Shown here: one piece after another, positions 1,237-23,150 of the stretch | How the letters are laid out: every line of letters begins with the position of its first letter | Position numbering within the stretch: the first letter of the stretch is position 1 | Assembly: GCA_040437565.1 (NCBI GenBank) | Contig: JBDOQK010000049.1 | Span: 248,001-274,812, forward strand | DNA from: Albugo candida | Lineage: Eukaryota | DNA: 26,812 nucleotides | Direction: 5' to 3' | Position numbers and translations under genes: made by a program | Notes under the pieces: model-generated | What the model was told of the DNA's origin: nothing | The model's input: the letters and a program-made list of their open reading frames with translations, nothing else | The model's database searches: none

Positions 1237-4200
1237 ATGAGCGATTCTAGCACAAAGACGACAATATTTGTGCGCAATTTACCATTCCAAATCACATCAA
1301 AGGAGCTCGAAGATCTGTTCAGCCAAATTGGACCTGTGAAAAAGGTTGATTTGATCAAAAATAAAGGAAAAGCAAAGGACGACACCCTTACTCGAGGATT
1401 CGCATTTGTGAGATTGTAAGAACGGATTTGCATGCAGTAATTGTGTCAACTGAACGTATTCTTAGTGCATTAGAAAGCGATGCGTCACTCGCCATCGAGA
1501 AAATGAATAAGTCCGAATTTCAAGGCCGAAAGCTATGTATTGGTGCGTNNNNNNNNNNNNNNNNNNNNNNNNNNNNNNNNNNNNNNNNNNNNNNNNNNNN
1601 NNNNNNNNNNNNNNNNNNNNNNNNNNNNNNNNNNNNNNNNNNNNNNNNTTTGTGAGATTGTAAGAACGGATTTGCATGCAGTAATTGTGTCAACTGAACG
1701 TATTCTTAGTGCATTAGAAAGCGATGCGTCACTCGCCATCGAGAAAATGAATAAGTCCGAATTTCAAGGCCGAAAGCTATGTATTGGTGCGTCAATAATA
1801 TGATCCGGTAGCCCGTCTCCTACACAAATTCACTGACATCAGTACATGACATGCTATAGATCGATGTAAATCCAAAGACGGTACACTCGTTGCTCCGAAG
1901 ATGGAGGAAAAGTCTTGTGAAATTGATGTGGCGGATAAAACAAAATCAGAGTCAAAAGATATCGATTGTGTACCCACAAAGACAAAACAAAGCGAACGTA
2001 ATGCACGTCGTCGACAACATCGTCAGTTTTTAAGACAAGTGGAAGAAAACAAAGAACTGAAAGCCTCGATTGAAGACAGATCAATTGCTATTTACGGCTT
2101 TAGCGATAAGATTACAGACAAAATCCTATGGAAACGTATCAGAAAGGTTAGCAAACATGTTGACAAATTAGAGATGAAAGAATATATGCAAAGAAAAAAA
2201 GAGAACAAAATGTATGCGACACTGGCGTTCAAAATGACAAAGGAAGTGCCGATTGCTGTCAAGAAATTAGATCAACATATTTTGAAGGGGGAAAAACTCT
2301 ATGTGAAACCACTTGGAGACTTTCTTGATGCATTGAAAGAGAGAAAGGATGGACTTCGATTGATCATACGCAACCTTTCCTTCCAAGCCACCGATGAAGA
2401 CTTGCAACGAGTGTTCAGTCAATTCGGAGCTATATTCGAGGCACATGTAGTGCGTCTTCCAGTCGATTCTGTTGCTGCGGGCGATACAGCTACTAAAGAG
2501 GGAAGTCTACCAATTTTGGGAAGGAGCCGAGGATTTGGGTTTGTTCAGTTCAATGAAAGTTCGGCTGCGGCATCAGCTGTAAAAGCGTTAAACGGGCATA
2601 AACTAAAAGGGCGTGAAATTGTGGTNNNNNNNNNNNNNNNNNNNNNNNNNNNNNNNNNNNNNNNNNNNNNNNNNNNNNNNNNNNNNNNNNNNNNNNNNNN
2701 NNNNNNNNNNNNNNNNNNNNNNNNNTGCGTCTTCCAGTCGATTCTGTTGCTGCGGGCGATACAGCTACTAAAGAGGGAAGTCTACCAATTTTGGGAAGGA
2801 GCCGAGGATTTGGGTTTGTTCAGTTCAATGAAAGTTCGGCTGCGGCATCAGCTGTAAAAGCGTTAAACGGGCATAAACTAAAAGGGCGTGAAATTGTGGT
2901 GGATTTTGCTGTTCCTAAAACTGACTATCTAAAACAGAATGAGGAGAGTGTCAAAAAGAGTGTCGACGCTGTGATAGATGATGCTGAGGCTGGCACTGAC
3001 GCAGAATCGCTAGCTGATGCAGAGATAGACGCTGACGTGGAAACTGAGCTTCAAGATGAAGACATGGCTGACATTTCAGCAGATAGTGNNNNNNNNNNNN
3101 NNNNNNNNNNNNNNNNNNNNNNNNNNNNNNNNNNNNNNNNNNNNNNNNNNNNNNNNNNNNNNNNNNNNNNNNNNNNNNNNNNNNNNNNAGTGTCAAAAAG
3201 AGTGTCGACGCTGTGATAGATGATGCTGAGGCTGGCACTGACGCAGAATCGCTAGCTGATGCAGAGATAGACGCTGACGTGGAAACTGAGCTTCAAGATG
3301 AAGACATGGCTGACATTTCAGCTGATAGTGATGAAGATAAAGTTGAATCCGATTTCGCAAATGAAGAGGGGGACAGTGAAGACGATACTGCCGTAAGCGA
3401 CATGAATGAAGCCACGACGGAAATCGAAGAGAAATCTCGAACAGGAAATCCGGACACGAATGAGCAACTTGAGCGAACATTATTCCTTCGAAACGTATCA
3501 TTCCAAACAACAAATGAAGGACTAAAGACTTTTTTTCAGACATTCGGCTGTGTAGAGTATACGCGAATAGTATACGATACAAACTCTAGATTGTCCAAGG
3601 GCGTTGCTTTCGTTCGGTTCAAGGACATTGAACCTGTCAATTATCTACTGGATCGAGCTCATGCTATTCAGAATCTTCTTCAAAATACTCAAGAAGATCT
3701 CGCTGGTCGAAATGCCACAACGTCCAAGAACGAACATGGTATGACGAATGTGTATACCGCCAGTGCTCTATCCGATGGTTCCGCGCTGATACTAGACGGA
3801 CGGATACTCAATTTGGCAAGAGCCGTTCGGAAAGAGGAAGCAGTTGAATTGGCCAGCGTTACACCTGCCAGCACTAAGTCGGGAAAAGACAAACGGAACT
3901 TGTACTTGGCCTATGAAGGAACCATCAACGTTAACAAGATCTCGACCGACCAGTTGATGCTTCCAAAACTCGATATTGAAAAACGACGGCGCGCATTGAA
4001 AGAGAAGAAGGAAAAGCTCAAAAATCCGATGTATTTTATATCTCCAGTCCGACTTTCTTTCCGAAATCTTGCATCACACGTCGATGACACGATTCTGAAA
4101 AAACTCGTACGAGATGCTGCTGTCACTGGAATGGGACATAATCTGGTTCAAAAGAAGGAAATCAAAGCAGAATTTCAGCTTCCATTGCAGGACAAATCAA

Positions 4201-4904
4201 AGATTCCTGTCAAAGTGCGGATGGCCAAAGTGATTCGTGACCAAACTTCCGTCCGTCCTGGTAAAATTGCTCGCTCTCGTGGATACGGATTTGCAGAATT
4301 CGCCCATCATGTTCATGCGTTGTGTGCATTGCGAGAACTGAATAACAATCCAAAGTACTCTTCATTTGCTGCAGGAAATCGGTCAAATTCTGTGGCAGAA
4401 CATGAGAAATCGCGGCTTATCATTGAATTTGCAATAGAGAACCATACGAAGCTCAAGTTACGAGAGAAGAAGCAAAAGGACCAACAAAAGAAAATGGCGA
4501 CGGACAAATTACTAAAGCAAAATCAAGAAGCTGTACTTCAAACAGAGTCGACAAAAAGTGAGACCAAAAAATGCAATCGTGGCGCTCGACAACGCAAACG
4601 GAAGCGGGAATCGGAATTGGAATCTCATGGAAAACCCGATGAGAGGATGAAGGAACACCACACAATTGATAAAGCTGAACTTGCAACGACAAAGTTGAGA
4701 CGAAAGACGGATTCAAGTGTCGAAGGTCACCACAAGTTAAAGAAACAGAGACGTATCGCCCCCAATATGACCTCATCTTCTCGCAAAGCAAGAAAACAGC
4801 TGGCCAGCACTGAGAAGGAGCGTTCATTCGATACAGTTGTGGCTGAATACAAAAATGCCATTTTCGGACGCGCACCAAAAGTAGAGGAACGGTGGTTCAA
4901 GTAA
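1237..4904 (+). CDS. NOP4: Nucleolar multi-RRM RNA-binding protein, RBM28/Nop4-like (60S biogenesis); spliced and interrupted by three gap-associated duplications
   Basis: RRM motifs: TIFVRNLPF...RGFAFVRF; LIIRNLSF...SRGFGFVQF; TLFLRNVSF...SKGVAFVRF; LSFRNL...SRGYGFAEF..H.HALCALRELNNNP...RLIIEFAIEN. Also an acidic linker and the Nop4-typical DKRNLYLAYEG and KLKNPMYFISPVRLS. Predicted introns are 1416-1465 (GTAAGA..TTAG) and 1787-1859 (GTGCGT..ATAG, in the second copy of the duplicated exon); both restore the frame. Stop at 4902-4904. Confidence 0.88.
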
Positions 4905-6403: not shown

Positions 6404-8174
6404 ATGACACTCCGTCACGTGATGATTTTTCATCGACATGGAGATCGAACTCCGCTTGTTCAGGAAGTAGCACCTCTTATGCGCATGTCTGCAAGCGAAG
6501 TGGAATGGTGGAGTACACGAATCGCAACTCCCGAAGAGCTCGATAAACTCAGTGCTACAAGCGACGTTGTCGGCCAAGAGGAACACATTCCGATGTATGA
6601 AGTGCTCAACGAAGGGGGAATGCATCCTTTGGGCCAACTAACCTCGAAAGGTGTAGCAGAAATGCGACTGGAAGGTGTGAAATTTCGCAATTTGTACTAC
6701 GAAAAACTGTTNNNNNNNNNNNNNNNNNNNNNNNNNNNNNNNNNNNNNNNNNNNNNNNNNNNNNNNNNNNNNNNNNNNNNNNNNNNNNNNNNNNNNNNNN
6801 NNNNNNNNNNNGCAATCGGACATGACACTCCGTCACGTGATGATTTTTCATCGACATGGAGATCGAACTCCGCTTGTTCAGGAAGTAGCACCTCTTATGC
6901 GCATGTCTGCAAGCGAAGTGGAATGGTGGAGTACACGAATCGCAACTCCCGAAGAGCTCGATAAACTCAGTGCTACAAGCGACGTTGTCGGCCAAGAGGA
7001 ACACATTCCGATGTATGAAGTGCTCAACGAAGGGGGAATGCATCCTTTGGGCCAACTAACCTCGAAAGGTGTAGCAGAAATGCGACTGGAAGGTGTGAAA
7101 TTTCGCAATTTGTACTACGAAAAACTGTTTAGTCGAAATAATGGCAAGAGGAGCAAACTGAAAAGCGAGAAATTGAACCATTCAGATTTGTTGTATGTGA
7201 TGTCAACGAATGTACGACGGACTGTACATTCCGTGCAGGCATTTCTCGGTGGGTTTTTCCAAATAGAATCGGACGTGCATGTTGAGGGTGGAAAAGAGTC
7301 TCACGATATCATGCCGTCAAGTTGCTGGTCTATCTATGCTAAAAGTTGGTCTAAAGCTAAAGGTCAGACTGAAAGCAAGCGGTTTCTAATTCGGACACAT
7401 GAGAAAAATTGCCTTGCACCCTCACACTCACTTCGTGTGTTTTTTGATTTGGAGAGCGTTCTTGAAGAAGAATTGAAGCTATTGGATCAAGCGAGGCAAG
7501 AAAAGGTGATTGACTTGGGTCAGAAACTTCGCCAAGCTCTCAAATTACCAGCGGAGGAGCACATTCCATGGACATTGAGTGAGTAACTACCAATCGTTCT
7601 GTACTTGAACATCCATTCATGTAAACTCGGTCTGATAGTTCGCGATACATTGTCTTGTCAAAGACATCATGGTTTGGACTTTCCTGAAGGAATCACACAA
7701 GAAATGTACATGGAACTGGTCGAGTACGATGCGTGGCTCTGGCATCGGTTGTATTCAAAACGATCATTCGCGTCGCCTGCTATGAAGGAAGCTGTGGCAT
7801 TTTTATCATCTCACATTGAATCAATCATTTTTCGGCTCAGGTGTGATTCAAAATTCTCGCTTTTTAGTCACAAAAGAAGGGGTCCGAAGATGTCTGTATT
7901 TTCCGTACATGACAACTCGATTGTAGCGCTGATAAATTCCTTTCAGATTCGAACAGGAGACATCTTACCTGATTATGGAGCGACCTTGGTATTTGAGATC
8001 CACGAAATACGTAAAAAACATTTTTATGTCAGGGTTTTATATGACAATCGCGAATGCCAGATTTTAGAGGCCGATAGTGCTCTTGGGTGTCCATACGATC
8101 ACTTGTTGAAGCGAGCTGCTGAATTCATAAACGATCCAAAAGAGTCGGACGAAAGGGTCGAGCCTTATTCATAA
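6404..8174 (+). CDS. Histidine acid phosphatase (branch 2; ACP6/lysosomal acid phosphatase-like). The 5' part appears twice across a gap; the complete copy is 6822-7578 + 7639-8174
   Basis: Catalytic RHGDRTP motif, GQLTxKG, STNVRRTVHS and HD motif (SVHDNSIVAL), then PDYGATLVFE. Intron 7579-7638 (GTGAGT..ATAG, 60 nt) removes the in-frame stop at 7584-7586. Confidence 0.9.
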
Positions 8175-10038: not shown

Positions 10039-10980
10039 TCAGTCTTCTGCGGACTTGTGTTTCTCTTTCTTCTCGGCTGATTTATCGTTTTCTGTCTTCT
10101 TTTTGGATTTCTTCGATTTCCCCCCCTTCTTTTTTGACTCAATGTTGTCATCATGATCCTCCTTGTGAGATCTGCCTTTCTGACCGCCCGCTGATTTTAC
10201 TTTCCCAGCCCCACCTCCCTTTCCTTTTTCACCCCCGCCTCCCTTTCCTTTCTCACCCCCGCCTCGATTTTCGTTGTCACCCCCGCCCCCCTTTCCCGTC
10301 TTACCATCGTCTTTGTCTCTGATCGGGCAGTACTTTTTATCTTCATCGGAGTATCCTGTGCCACCATTGACATTGTCCACGTTATAGTAGTAAATGTAAG
10401 CTTGGCCACCACCCTCATCTTTAGCTTGTGTTGATAGCCAATATAACTGGAACGTTTTCGCCTTAGTACATAGCTTCGTATTGTTCAATTTAACTTTAGC
10501 CACGCCCTTGTTTCCAGGATTGTTATAGATCCGAAAATCATCAACGTGCATGATTCGGATAGCATCGCAATAAGCCTCCATAGGCCCTTGATGTCTGACA
10601 CCTTCGACTTTTTTTGAATTCATTCTATTTTTCCCGAAGTAAATTACATTTGGGAGCTTGATAGCTGGAGCAGTTTTGAGACAATACCCCGTATTTAAAT
10701 CTGCACCCTTCTCCGGTTTACCAAACTTTAGAACCATGTCTTTCAAACTGAGTTTATCCGGGTTCCATACAGAAATAAACATATCGTAGGTTTTCCGTGA
10801 ACTGGTTCTCGGGAATTTCTTGCCTGGGAAGACTTTGTCAAAATCAAGACGAGCTGCAAAAATATTGTTTTTGTTCTTATCTGCCCGCAAACAGTCTGGA
10901 CATACCATATGGCCGTGGCTTTGTGCAACGCTGACCAGGTCTGACAGGAGAAGAATGCAAAAGGTAAGTTTGAGTGCCAT
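10039..10980 (-). CDS. Secreted AA17-like copper LPMO (divergent) with Gly/Lys-rich basic tail; 313 aa
   Basis: ATG at 10980 (the ORF-track start at 11109 is a TTG). A 21-aa signal peptide MALKLTFCILLLSDLVSVAQS ends just before HG, making His the predicted mature residue 1. GVRHQGPMEAYCD matches the AA17 HxGPCExWxD motif, and FQLYWLSTQ...QAYIY matches LxFYWLA...WQxY. The family assignment is from recalled motifs, not a database search. Confidence 0.78.
   Translation of the reverse strand: MALKLTFCILLLSDLVSVAQSHGHMVCPDCLRADKNKNNIFAARLDFDKVFPGKKFPRTSSRKTYDMFISVWNPDKLSLKDMVLKFGKPEKGADLNTGYCLKTAPAIKLPNVIYFGKNRMNSKKVEGVRHQGPMEAYCDAIRIMHVDDFRIYNNPGNKGVAKVKLNNTKLCTKAKTFQLYWLSTQAKDEGGGQAYIYYYNVDNVNGGTGYSDEDKKYCPIRDKDDGKTGKGGGGDNENRGGGEKGKGGGGEKGKGGGAGKVKSAGGQKGRSHKEDHDDNIESKKKGGKSKKSKKKTENDKSAEKKEKHKSAED
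10200..10262 (-). repeat. Short 24-nt coding tandem repeat (GGGEKGKG-type, ~2.5 units) in the tail of LPMO 1
   Basis: The translation RGGGEKGKGGGGEKGKGGGAGK corresponds to + strand ccccgcctccctttcctttytca units. Confidence 0.8.
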
Positions 10981-20426: not shown

Positions 20427-22087
20427 CGCCAAAACTACTGTAATCTTCTAGATATAANNNNNNNNNNNNNNNNNNNNNNNNNNNNNNNNNNNNNNNNNNN
20501 NNNNNNNNNNNNNNNNNNNNNNNNNNNNNNNNNNNNNNNNNNNNNNNNNNNNNNNNNCTCATCGCCAAAACTACAGTAATCTTCTAGATATAAGCGTGCT
20601 CACCCAGTAATTATTTATTTGTATCCAGCTGTACTGAAGGTAATATCATTGAGACAAATATGTAGAGATCTGTAGCCCGGGTGCGAGTTTACATGATACA
20701 ATAACTTCTGATTCGTCAAAGCCGTATTTTTCATTTCAGAACAACTTACGGAAATTTACGATGCAAATAACTTCAGGACAGGGTAAGATCAGTGCCATCT
20801 CTATCATTTGTCCATTGATGCAAAGTCAAGTTCAGAAAATGTCGTAGGTATATTATTACCTGCTTGGTTAGAATCAAAAAATCAATTGATTTGCTACTAC
20901 TTTCTAGAGCAGAAATAAGTCTAGCGTATTCTCGTTCACAATCGCTTTACTCATTGTAATACAATCTCGTGGCGCAAGCTTGTAAATAAAAATGCGGAAA
21001 CGTGGTGGGAACCAGCTCATATTCCAGGAGTTGACGCCGGTGAAGAGTGTCATAAAATATATGAGGACGTGCAAACCCATTGAGGTGTACATTGTCGACA
21101 AAGATTTTGAAACGTCTTCGTTTTACATCAAAAGATCTCAAGAAGACAGCTTACCTCGTCAACGAGGTTGCCAACAACATCTACTCAATGACTCTTCTGT
21201 CACTACCAAAAAATTCTTACCACCTGTGTCACGATTCCAGAGAATGCACCATCTCTCATCATTATATGTCATTATGAGTGGTAGTTGTAGGAAGTTATGC
21301 TTCACAATAGATAATGCTAGGTAGGGCCATGCCATATCATTCTGTACAAGCTTCCAGACAATACTTCATTATAGTGTTTGCAAGCTAAACATGATCGAAG
21401 GTACGGGTCTCGTATAAATTATACAAATAAGGTTGCGTCATGCGTATACATCATTAGGAATAGTCTGCTTTTGAGTCTTTATGTACGATATTCGTCAACT
21501 GTAGTTCGCACAGATGATGGTGATCTTCTCTAGTAGTCATAAATAAAGTAATTTCAGCTTTAGAAGTACGCATTCACGTCCAGAATATGAGCGAGCTTTA
21601 ACAAGTTATAGGTCATATAAACTAACCGATAACCCACGCTTCGGGAACTGTTAGACAAAATTCTACTCTCACCACGCATGTTGCCCGCTACAGCTGTTAA
21701 TCTTTTGCTGAAGTTAGTAGTGTTGCTCTACACAATAATATATTTGCGCTGATTAGAGTCTTGTAGGCTGTTTAACATATCGTACATGATTCTTCATATA
21801 CCAGGGAGTAACTGGTTTTTATACATGCTATGTTGAACGCGCGGACGAACTGCAAGTGCCGTACAAGGCCAGATACGAGAAGCTTGGCACATTGCAAAGA
21901 AACCTTTGTCTTTAACTGATGCGATAACCCGAAAGTATTTACAATGCTAATTGATGAAGTAATAGGCATGAAACACAAAAATCAAGGNNNNNNNNNNNNN
22001 NNNNNNNNNNNNNNNNNNNNNNNNNNNNNNNNNNNNNNNNNNNNNNNNNNNNNNNNNNNNNNNNNNNNNNNNNNNNNNNNNNNNNNN

Positions 22088-23150
22088 CCTTACCCACCAT
22101 TGACACCTCAGGTTTTTGCTTCGCTGGAGCTTTTTCAACATCCTTTTCCTTTGTGCTCGTGTTGTCATTTATTTTCTTGTGATTCGAGCCTCCACTTTCC
22201 GGTGGGTTGGACGTCGGCCCTCCACTTCCCGGTGGGTTCAACGTCAGTCCTCCACTTTTCGGCGTGTTGTGATTCGACCCTCCACTTTTCGGCGTAATGG
22301 GACTCGAGCCTCCATTTCCCGGCGTAGTGGGATTCGAGCCACCATTTCCCGGCGTAGTGGGATTCGAGCCTCCATTCCCCGGCGTAGTGGGAGTCGAGCC
22401 TCCATTCCCCGGCGTAGTGGGATTCGAGCCTCCATTTCCCGGCGTAGTGGGAGTCGAGCCACCATTTCCCGGAGTAGTGGCATTCGAGCCTCCACCATTC
22501 GGCGGACACCTTAGGTTATATTCACCGGACGTTCCTGGGCTAGCATTCTCATCGATGTTGAGATAATATACATAGACCTGGCTATTTCCTTCCGCTTTTG
22601 ATTGTGATGCCGTCCAAAATAATTGCAAGGTCTTAGCCTTAGCGCACCAACTAGTGTTTGTTAGATCAATTTTAGCCAAGCCCTTGTTTCCAGGGTTGTT
22701 AATATCCTGGAAATTCTTGAAAACCATGATACGAATGTCATCGCAATAAACTTCAGCAGCTCCTACGTGTATGACACCTTCAAGAAAAGAACCTCTTCTC
22801 CTTCCAAAATAAATGTTCTTAGGAAATTTGACAGGTGCACCGTTTTTATCACATTGACCGGTCTCGAAGTTGCCTCCATTCGTTGGCACTGCATACTTTT
22901 GTATAATCTCTTTGACACTGAGTGTGTTGGGATCCCAGACAGACTTGAACATTTCATAATTTCTATCCGTTCCGGTTTCTGGGAATTTCGTGCCTTTGAA
23001 AACTTTTCCAAAATCAACTCTTCCAACAAAAAGACTTTTCTTCTTTATATCTTTTTGTGCGCAAGCTGGGCAATATACAGTCCCGTGGCTCTGCGCAACG
23101 CTGAGCAGTTTCGATAAAAGTAGAAATGAGAAGATAGTTCTATATGCCAT
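22088..23150 (-). CDS. Secreted AA17-like copper LPMO (divergent), paralogue of 10039-10980, with Gly/Ser/Pro/Thr repeat tail; 3' end lost in gap 21988-22087
   Basis: ATG at 23150, a 21-aa signal MAYRTIFSFLLLSKLLSVAQS, then HGTVYCPAC. Motifs: GVIHVGAAEVYCD, NNPGNKG, LQLFWTASQ...SQVYVYY. It aligns with the first paralogue over the whole catalytic domain, including all six Cys. Confidence 0.78.
22179..22493 (-). repeat. 30-nt coding tandem repeat, ~10.5 units of GGS(N/T)PTTPGN degenerating to GGxxxxPxS
   Basis: The + strand unit cccggcgtagtggga(t/g)tcgagcc(t/a)ccatt(t/c) repeats with a 30-nt period. Confidence 0.95.

Follow-up and report, generated by a model that had tools for sequence, protein, structure and literature searches.

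The 26,812-nucleotide stretch of Albugo candida DNA considered here (GenBank assembly GCA_040437565.1, contig JBDOQK010000049.1, positions 248,001 to 274,812 of the forward strand), which we call the window and number from its first base, carries two paralogous, intronless genes. Both are predicted to encode secreted lytic polysaccharide monooxygenases (LPMOs) of the AA17 fold with intact histidine-brace residues, and both have the string CPxC shortly after the N-terminal histidine. Gene 1 (10039-10980, minus strand) is an open reading frame (ORF) of 313 amino acids comprising a leader, an AA17 domain, a cysteine-bearing extension, and a Gly/Lys-rich tail; it falls in the 90% cluster of A. candida CCI48887.1/A0A024GPT6. 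Gene 2 (22088-23150, minus strand), whose mature domain is 47% identical to that of gene 1, falls in the 90% cluster of A. candida CCI48882.1/A0A024GPT0, and its Pro/Thr/Gly repeat tail enters a gap of N at 21988-22087. Orthologues of both are found in the rows searched of the published A. candida secretome tables (PMC12503489).

Conservation is described below against an alignment of 84 rows: 7 rows from the Albugo clade to which both genes belong and 77 non-Albugo AA17s. In gene 1, inspection reveals a leader of 21 hydrophobic residues ending in AQS (10918-10980), a putative signal peptide whose removal would expose His1 (10915-10917). This predicted copper ligand is His in 74 of the 77 other rows and gapped in 3. 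The mature N-terminus, HGHMVCPDC (10891-10917), contains the CPDC motif (10891-10902), with C6 at the end of strand 1 and C9 beyond it; C197 and C79 are their likely respective partners. C79, in TGxC (10681-10683), occupies a column that is Cys in 48 of the 77. His109 of HQGP (10591-10593), the predicted second copper ligand, is invariant (84/84). C117 of YCD (10567-10569) probably pairs with C150 of CxKAK (10468-10470), and the segment 10396-10428 holds Q164, a second-sphere Gln, followed by the conserved Q172 and by Y174, the Tyr of WQxY. Beyond the domain lies a C-terminal extension (residues 181-198; 10324-10377; predicted local distance difference test score [pLDDT] 63-68) with a short predicted helix and a C197-P end. 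The last 94 residues (10042-10323) are a low-complexity Gly/Lys-rich tail without Cys and with an isoelectric point (pI) of 9.75. In other apoplast proteins of A. candida, disordered tails of cationic character are antibacterial according to the available part of 10.1101/2022.05.16.492175.

Gene 2 is built likewise, with a leader of 21 hydrophobic residues ahead of HGTVYCPAC (23061-23087; C6 at 23070-23072, C9 at 23061-23063). Between 22506 and 22853 follow C79 (22851-22853), H107 (22767-22769), C115, C148, Y172, and C194 (22506-22508). The two mature N-termini given in the first-pass annotation were thus read in both sequences, on the minus strand, as was its count of exactly six equivalently placed Cys per domain, at 6, 9, 79, 117, 150, and 197 in gene 1 and at 6, 9, 79, 115, 148, and 194 in gene 2. 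Could CPxC be due to chance or to an assembly error? This was rejected: the motif is in 7/7 clade rows and 0/77 others, and the segment 10891-10917 has no listed difference in the four public runs examined (of 11 listed), all of which cover it.

Assignment to AA17 and the copper site

The first-pass annotation had taken both domains to be AA17, and this has held up. A profile of the two genes alone matches AA17 weakly (E, 0.023 to 0.072), and Pfam misses the Albugo AA17 loci. The profile of the 84-row alignment, which includes both genes, matches all three solved AA17s at E<=1e-25, a canonical AA17 query recovers both genes, and a tree nests them beside a protein of Pythium oligandrum. The predicted model is an LPMO beta-sandwich closest to AA17 structures and aligned over residues 1 to 181. 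H1, H109, Q164, Q172, and Y174 are kept in all seven clade rows, and the members of the 90% clusters are named A. candida, an Albugo origin that fits the oomycete AA17 family.

How do the Albugo proteins compare with characterized relatives? PsAA17A (8S6S), PsAA17B (8S71), and 6Z5Y, which we take to be PiAA17C, have the same predicted fold and the same His1, second His in HxG, Gln at the YWLxxQ position (Q164 in gene 1), QxY, whose Tyr (Y174) presumably has an axial copper role, and Pro7. A signal peptide, a low-complexity tail, and a total of six domain Cys are also common to both sets. The Albugo genes differ in that their last strand is followed by an extension with a Cys, QxY is not preceded by Trp (Gly precedes Q172 in gene 1), and the domain is basic. 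Moreover, the Cys of the solved proteins are those of CG, GPC, DDC, SSC, GGC, and KNC, whereas the Albugo genes share with them column 150 only; the third Cys pair differs between the solved AA17s and the WCD type that makes up our sample. The nearest relative outside Albugo, the uncharacterized AA17 TMW61726.1 of P. oligandrum (P0008; 36-37% identity), is like the Albugo clade in its TTQARDEGG-type loop and Gln164 but keeps six ancestral Cys and has no C6, C9, C79, or C197.

Lost and gained cysteines

The 7 clade rows represent five distinct proteins plus two alleles from two Albugo species, and the 77 others are all 71 matches of one search and six of another. Full-length duplicates (P0003 and P0004), truncated sequences (P0007, P0013, and P0026), and six near-identical alleles are omitted. 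Among the 77, Cys stands at column 76 in 76 rows, at 113, 117, and 128 in all 77, at 150 in 76, and at 177 in 71. The first-pass annotation held that the consensus Cys of CG, GPCE, (D/N)C, and KNC are all replaced in the Albugo genes, and this is confirmed by comparison with the 77: the columns of CG, GPCE, DxC, and NC read T76, M113 (Ala in gene 2), F128, and Y177. In the clade as a whole these four Cys are gone from 7/7 rows, save for an alignment detail in A. laibachii P0027. Since all four columns are without Cys, two ancestral pairs, CG-NC and GPC-DxC, are, to judge from the alignment, lost whole; both are usual in AA17, though the family is not defined by them.

That whole disulfide pairs were lost therefore stands, with one correction: the six Cys are not all new, as C117 and C150 are ancestral (77/77 and 76/77) and the TGxC column is already Cys in 48 of the 77. 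In those ordinary AA17s the result is a CGxC string whose first Cys is the conserved CG Cys, and the column-79 Cys, present in most of the sampled Phytophthora proteins, is an apparently unpaired seventh. The absence of CPxC from the 77 answers the question of whether it is widespread, at least in this sample, and among the 74 rows with His1, only four have any Cys within the first 20 residues, always at position 9; these are Phytophthora proteins without C6. The proline of CPxC is not new, for Pro7 is family-wide (75/77), and the middle residue varies within the clade (D, A, Q, Q, E). The clade is, on these comparisons, a real AA17 variant, restricted to Albugo in the sequences compared.

With which residues, then, do the Cys pair? 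The simplest reading of the alignment is C6-C197, C9-C79, and C117-C150. We put at roughly three in four the probability that the clade lost two ancestral pairs that were replaced by structural disulfides C6-C197 and C9-C79, with C117-C150 retained. One option in the first-pass annotation was that C6 and C9 form new disulfides with the Cys of TGxC and of the C-terminal CP; co-occurrence and covariation support this and narrow it to specific partners.

The co-occurrence concerns C6. C6-P7 occurs without C9 or C79 in two further loci of this genome, L009 and L010, and in A. laibachii P0100; in these, all six ancestral Cys are retained, and one Cys is added 18-20 residues beyond column 177, in C197's place. 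The C6-only clade (P0097, P0098, and P0100), with a predicted AA17 fold, is in this like genes 1 and 2, down to the helix predicted before the added Cys, but unlike them in lacking C9 and C79, in keeping all ancestral Cys, and in forming a separate branch. In models of both types, the extension closes with a helix directly before its Cys. Overall, 75 rows were complete enough for scoring, and all 10 C6 carriers among them have an extension Cys. In a 26-row tree with every Cys masked, the CPxC clade and canonical P0008 are sisters (support, 100/99), and a single clade of all C6 carriers is rejected (approximately unbiased test, p-AU 0.016), though long branches may affect the test. The co-occurrence and this rejection together suggest a joint gain of C6 and the extension Cys, twice within Albugo.

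The covariation concerns C9. Over the 84 rows, columns 9 and 79 read V/C in 48, P/T in 9, C/C in 7, A/S in 5, C/T in 4, A/T in 4, A/A in 3, and other combinations in 4; the two columns change together, as a packing pair would. In both models, residue 11 (10-11) and column 79 (86-87) lie in short beta-bridges, partners unspecified.

Several points weigh against this reading as a whole. An extension Cys lies 15-23 residues out in 4 of 65 rows without C6. The C6 co-occurrence rests on two lineages, not on 10 independent cases, and the C6-only lineage is an analogy that does not force an equal pairing in genes 1 and 2. A lone Cys is tolerated at column 79 (48 rows) and at column 9 (4 rows and, by alignment, locus L006), so C9 and C79 need not be bonded. 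The extension bearing C197 is modeled at a pLDDT of only 63-68, and P0027 has a seventh Cys, at 178. The 77 rows sample the WCD type, chiefly from Phytophthora and Pythium, and not the whole family, for which the available part of PMC10195143 tabulates 424 sequences. Finally, identity to characterized AA17s is just 18-20%, which together with the loss of the WQxY Trp makes any activity and substrate no more than putative.

If the three disulfides are as proposed, the six Cys would be oxidized in the secretory pathway. C9-C79 would tether the N-terminal and TGxC loops to each other, near the site formerly held by the lost CG-NC bridge, and C6-C197 would staple the new extension (residues 181-198) to strand 1. 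A single copper would be held by His1 and His109 and reduced, as in PsAA17A/B, by an external donor. Demethylated pectin in the host apoplast would be the likely substrate oxidized by the basic domain; PsAA17A/B are active on such pectin with ascorbate in the available part of PMC11992081. CPxC would then be no single functional unit: the string results from two positions, on either side of the conserved Pro7, that vary independently.

Alternative readings

A separate question is whether the proteins have kept copper binding but lost pectin cleavage, acting instead on another substrate, as oxidases only, or in copper scavenging. This is unlikely, though by no means negligible. The low identity and the lost Trp point that way, as do the long stem branch of the clade and domain pI values that are the five highest among 70 rows (8.3-9.6). 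Against it, the copper-site and second-sphere residues are kept in every clade row, and a basic surface would fit a polyanionic substrate, although such a fit proves nothing.

What else might C6, C9, C79, and C197 be doing? That they form a cluster at the far end of the His1 strand and serve as a zinc site or a switchable dithiol in some form is a long shot. Also improbable is a different order of structural disulfides, C6-C79 and C9-C197: all four Cys are likely close together, but C6 is found with the extension Cys in proteins that have Ser or Thr at column 79, and it is column 9 that varies in step with column 79.

The other option in the first-pass annotation, that C6 and C9 act as a redox or metal CxxC next to the copper, found no support and is unlikely. 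Two specific readings of a redox or metal kind were weighed. The first, very improbable, is that C6 and C9 of CPxC form a redox-active dithiol/disulfide pair, with C79-C197 as the remaining bridge, and that this pair reduces or gates the copper. CPxC is like thioredoxin-fold active sites and is kept throughout the clade, in two species. In addition, the natural electron donor of AA17 is unsettled, and P. sojae AA7 oxidases did not fuel AA17 according to the available part of PMC11992081. However, C6 occurs without C9 in three proteins of the second Albugo lineage, and C9 without C6 in four Phytophthora proteins and in the L006 alignment. The two do not travel together, which argues against a CxxC unit; the CGxC of ordinary AA17s argues likewise. 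Thioredoxin CxxC sits at a helix N-terminus in the thioredoxin fold. Here, across the clade, the C6-only proteins, Phytophthora, and L006, the two Cys are not conserved as a unit, and they are modeled at a strand end and loop of an LPMO fold. The middle residue is variable, the Pro is the family's own, and a secreted dithiol would have no evident recharging system. Nor is five residues from His1 necessarily near: residues 3-6 form a strand in the model, an extended strand advances about 3.3 Å per residue, and C6 would therefore lie about 15 Å from His1, with C9 probably further.

The second, that the four Cys bind a structural metal as a Zn-Cys4 knuckle without disulfides, is equally improbable. 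The four sulfurs would be near one another if the proposed contacts hold, CPxC is a common metal knuckle, and all four Cys are in every clade row. Partial sets are common, however (C6 with the extension Cys, C79 alone, C9 alone), and have no substitute His or Asp at columns 9 (S/P/A) and 79 (S/T/T); moreover, Cys of secreted proteins are normally oxidized.

Finally, there is next to no chance that CPxC is a relative of the CHxC/CCG effector motif of Albugo and a sign of delivery into host cells. The genus has expanded CCG effectors, a class defined by an N-terminal CxxCxxxxxG (available part of 10.1101/2021.03.29.437041), and these effectors share with our genes a signal peptide followed by an early CxxC. 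Their Cys have also been modeled as structural disulfides in the accessible portion of PMC12503489. Genes 1 and 2 are unlike them in having a histidine-brace start, another fold, and no Gly six residues past the second Cys. The full pattern is matched by 0/6 full-length clade proteins, and in the parts of PMC12503489 available, orthologues score 0.70 and 0.072 in the CCG MEME output, taken as non-hits, and sit in structural cluster 146, of three proteins. The CCG motif lies on a helix of a ferredoxin-like fold, as far as 10.64898/2026.02.04.703898 is available, and not in an LPMO sandwich. Effector identity is therefore largely refuted.

Other Albugo loci and significance

About ten divergent AA17 loci are found in this A. 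candida genome. L009 (L009:1105-2097) and L010 (L010:1000-2091; AA17 fold predicted) are tandem minus-strand genes on G000:C39 with C6 and an extension Cys; their residue 2 is Thr or Met, not Gly, and their YW motif is TF/TY. L005 and L006 (G000:C39, C610) are another type: they have a 7-residue insert behind strand 1, a C9 equivalent, and two further new Cys, and have lost the Cys of CG and NC. L007, L008, and L011 (G000:C5:718315-721301) form a cluster of divergent copies, of which L007, interrupted by an in-frame TGA, is apparently broken; L011 repeats part of L007. L003, on a short contig (G000:C1692:1-655), covers the 3' portion of a sequence close to gene 2, either a copy or an allele; it includes the extension Cys, and its tail closes with a basic, Cys-bearing stretch. 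A single Cys among basic residues lies near the end of the low-complexity tail in P0005, P0006, P0025, P0097, P0098, and P0100 and in many Phytophthora/Pythium AA17s; the gene 2 allele has one and gene 1 none. This recalls the tail Cys that dimerizes fungal AA9-X283 LPMOs (available part of PMC10990093).

Around the two genes, the window has 15 gaps of 100 N, and in 10 of them the right flank is duplicated just upstream (54-486 bases). This is an assembly artefact that creates false duplicate ORFs, e.g., 6404-6964 and 6822-7586. On the plus strand, 1-1026, 1901-4904, and 6822-8174 hold housekeeping neighbors: the C-terminus of FANCI, an RRM protein of which one piece was scanned, and a histidine phosphatase split over two ORFs.

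No publication on the Albugo CPxC clade, or on CPxC in an LPMO, was found among titles and abstract beginnings, with subscription literature largely outside that scope; the literature covered, each item in part, includes PMC8393829, PMC10195143, PMC13585763, PMC10990093, and 10.1101/2022.05.16.492175.

What would the findings mean? A four-Cys zinc or dithiol cluster, if real, would equip an LPMO with an internal electron store or with a means of sensing the host oxidative burst, and a self-reducing LPMO would be relevant to the question of how AA17 is fueled in planta; only such a redox or metal role would change LPMO chemistry. The preferred reading, structural disulfides C6-C197 and C9-C79, leaves that chemistry as it is. 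If it is true, the clade would be a case of natural disulfide turnover in an LPMO, with two of three bridges swapped around an unchanged copper site and a C6-to-extension staple apparently gained twice in one genus. That an obligate biotroph has so many divergent AA17 loci missed by Pfam matters for annotating the wall-modifying enzymes of white rusts.
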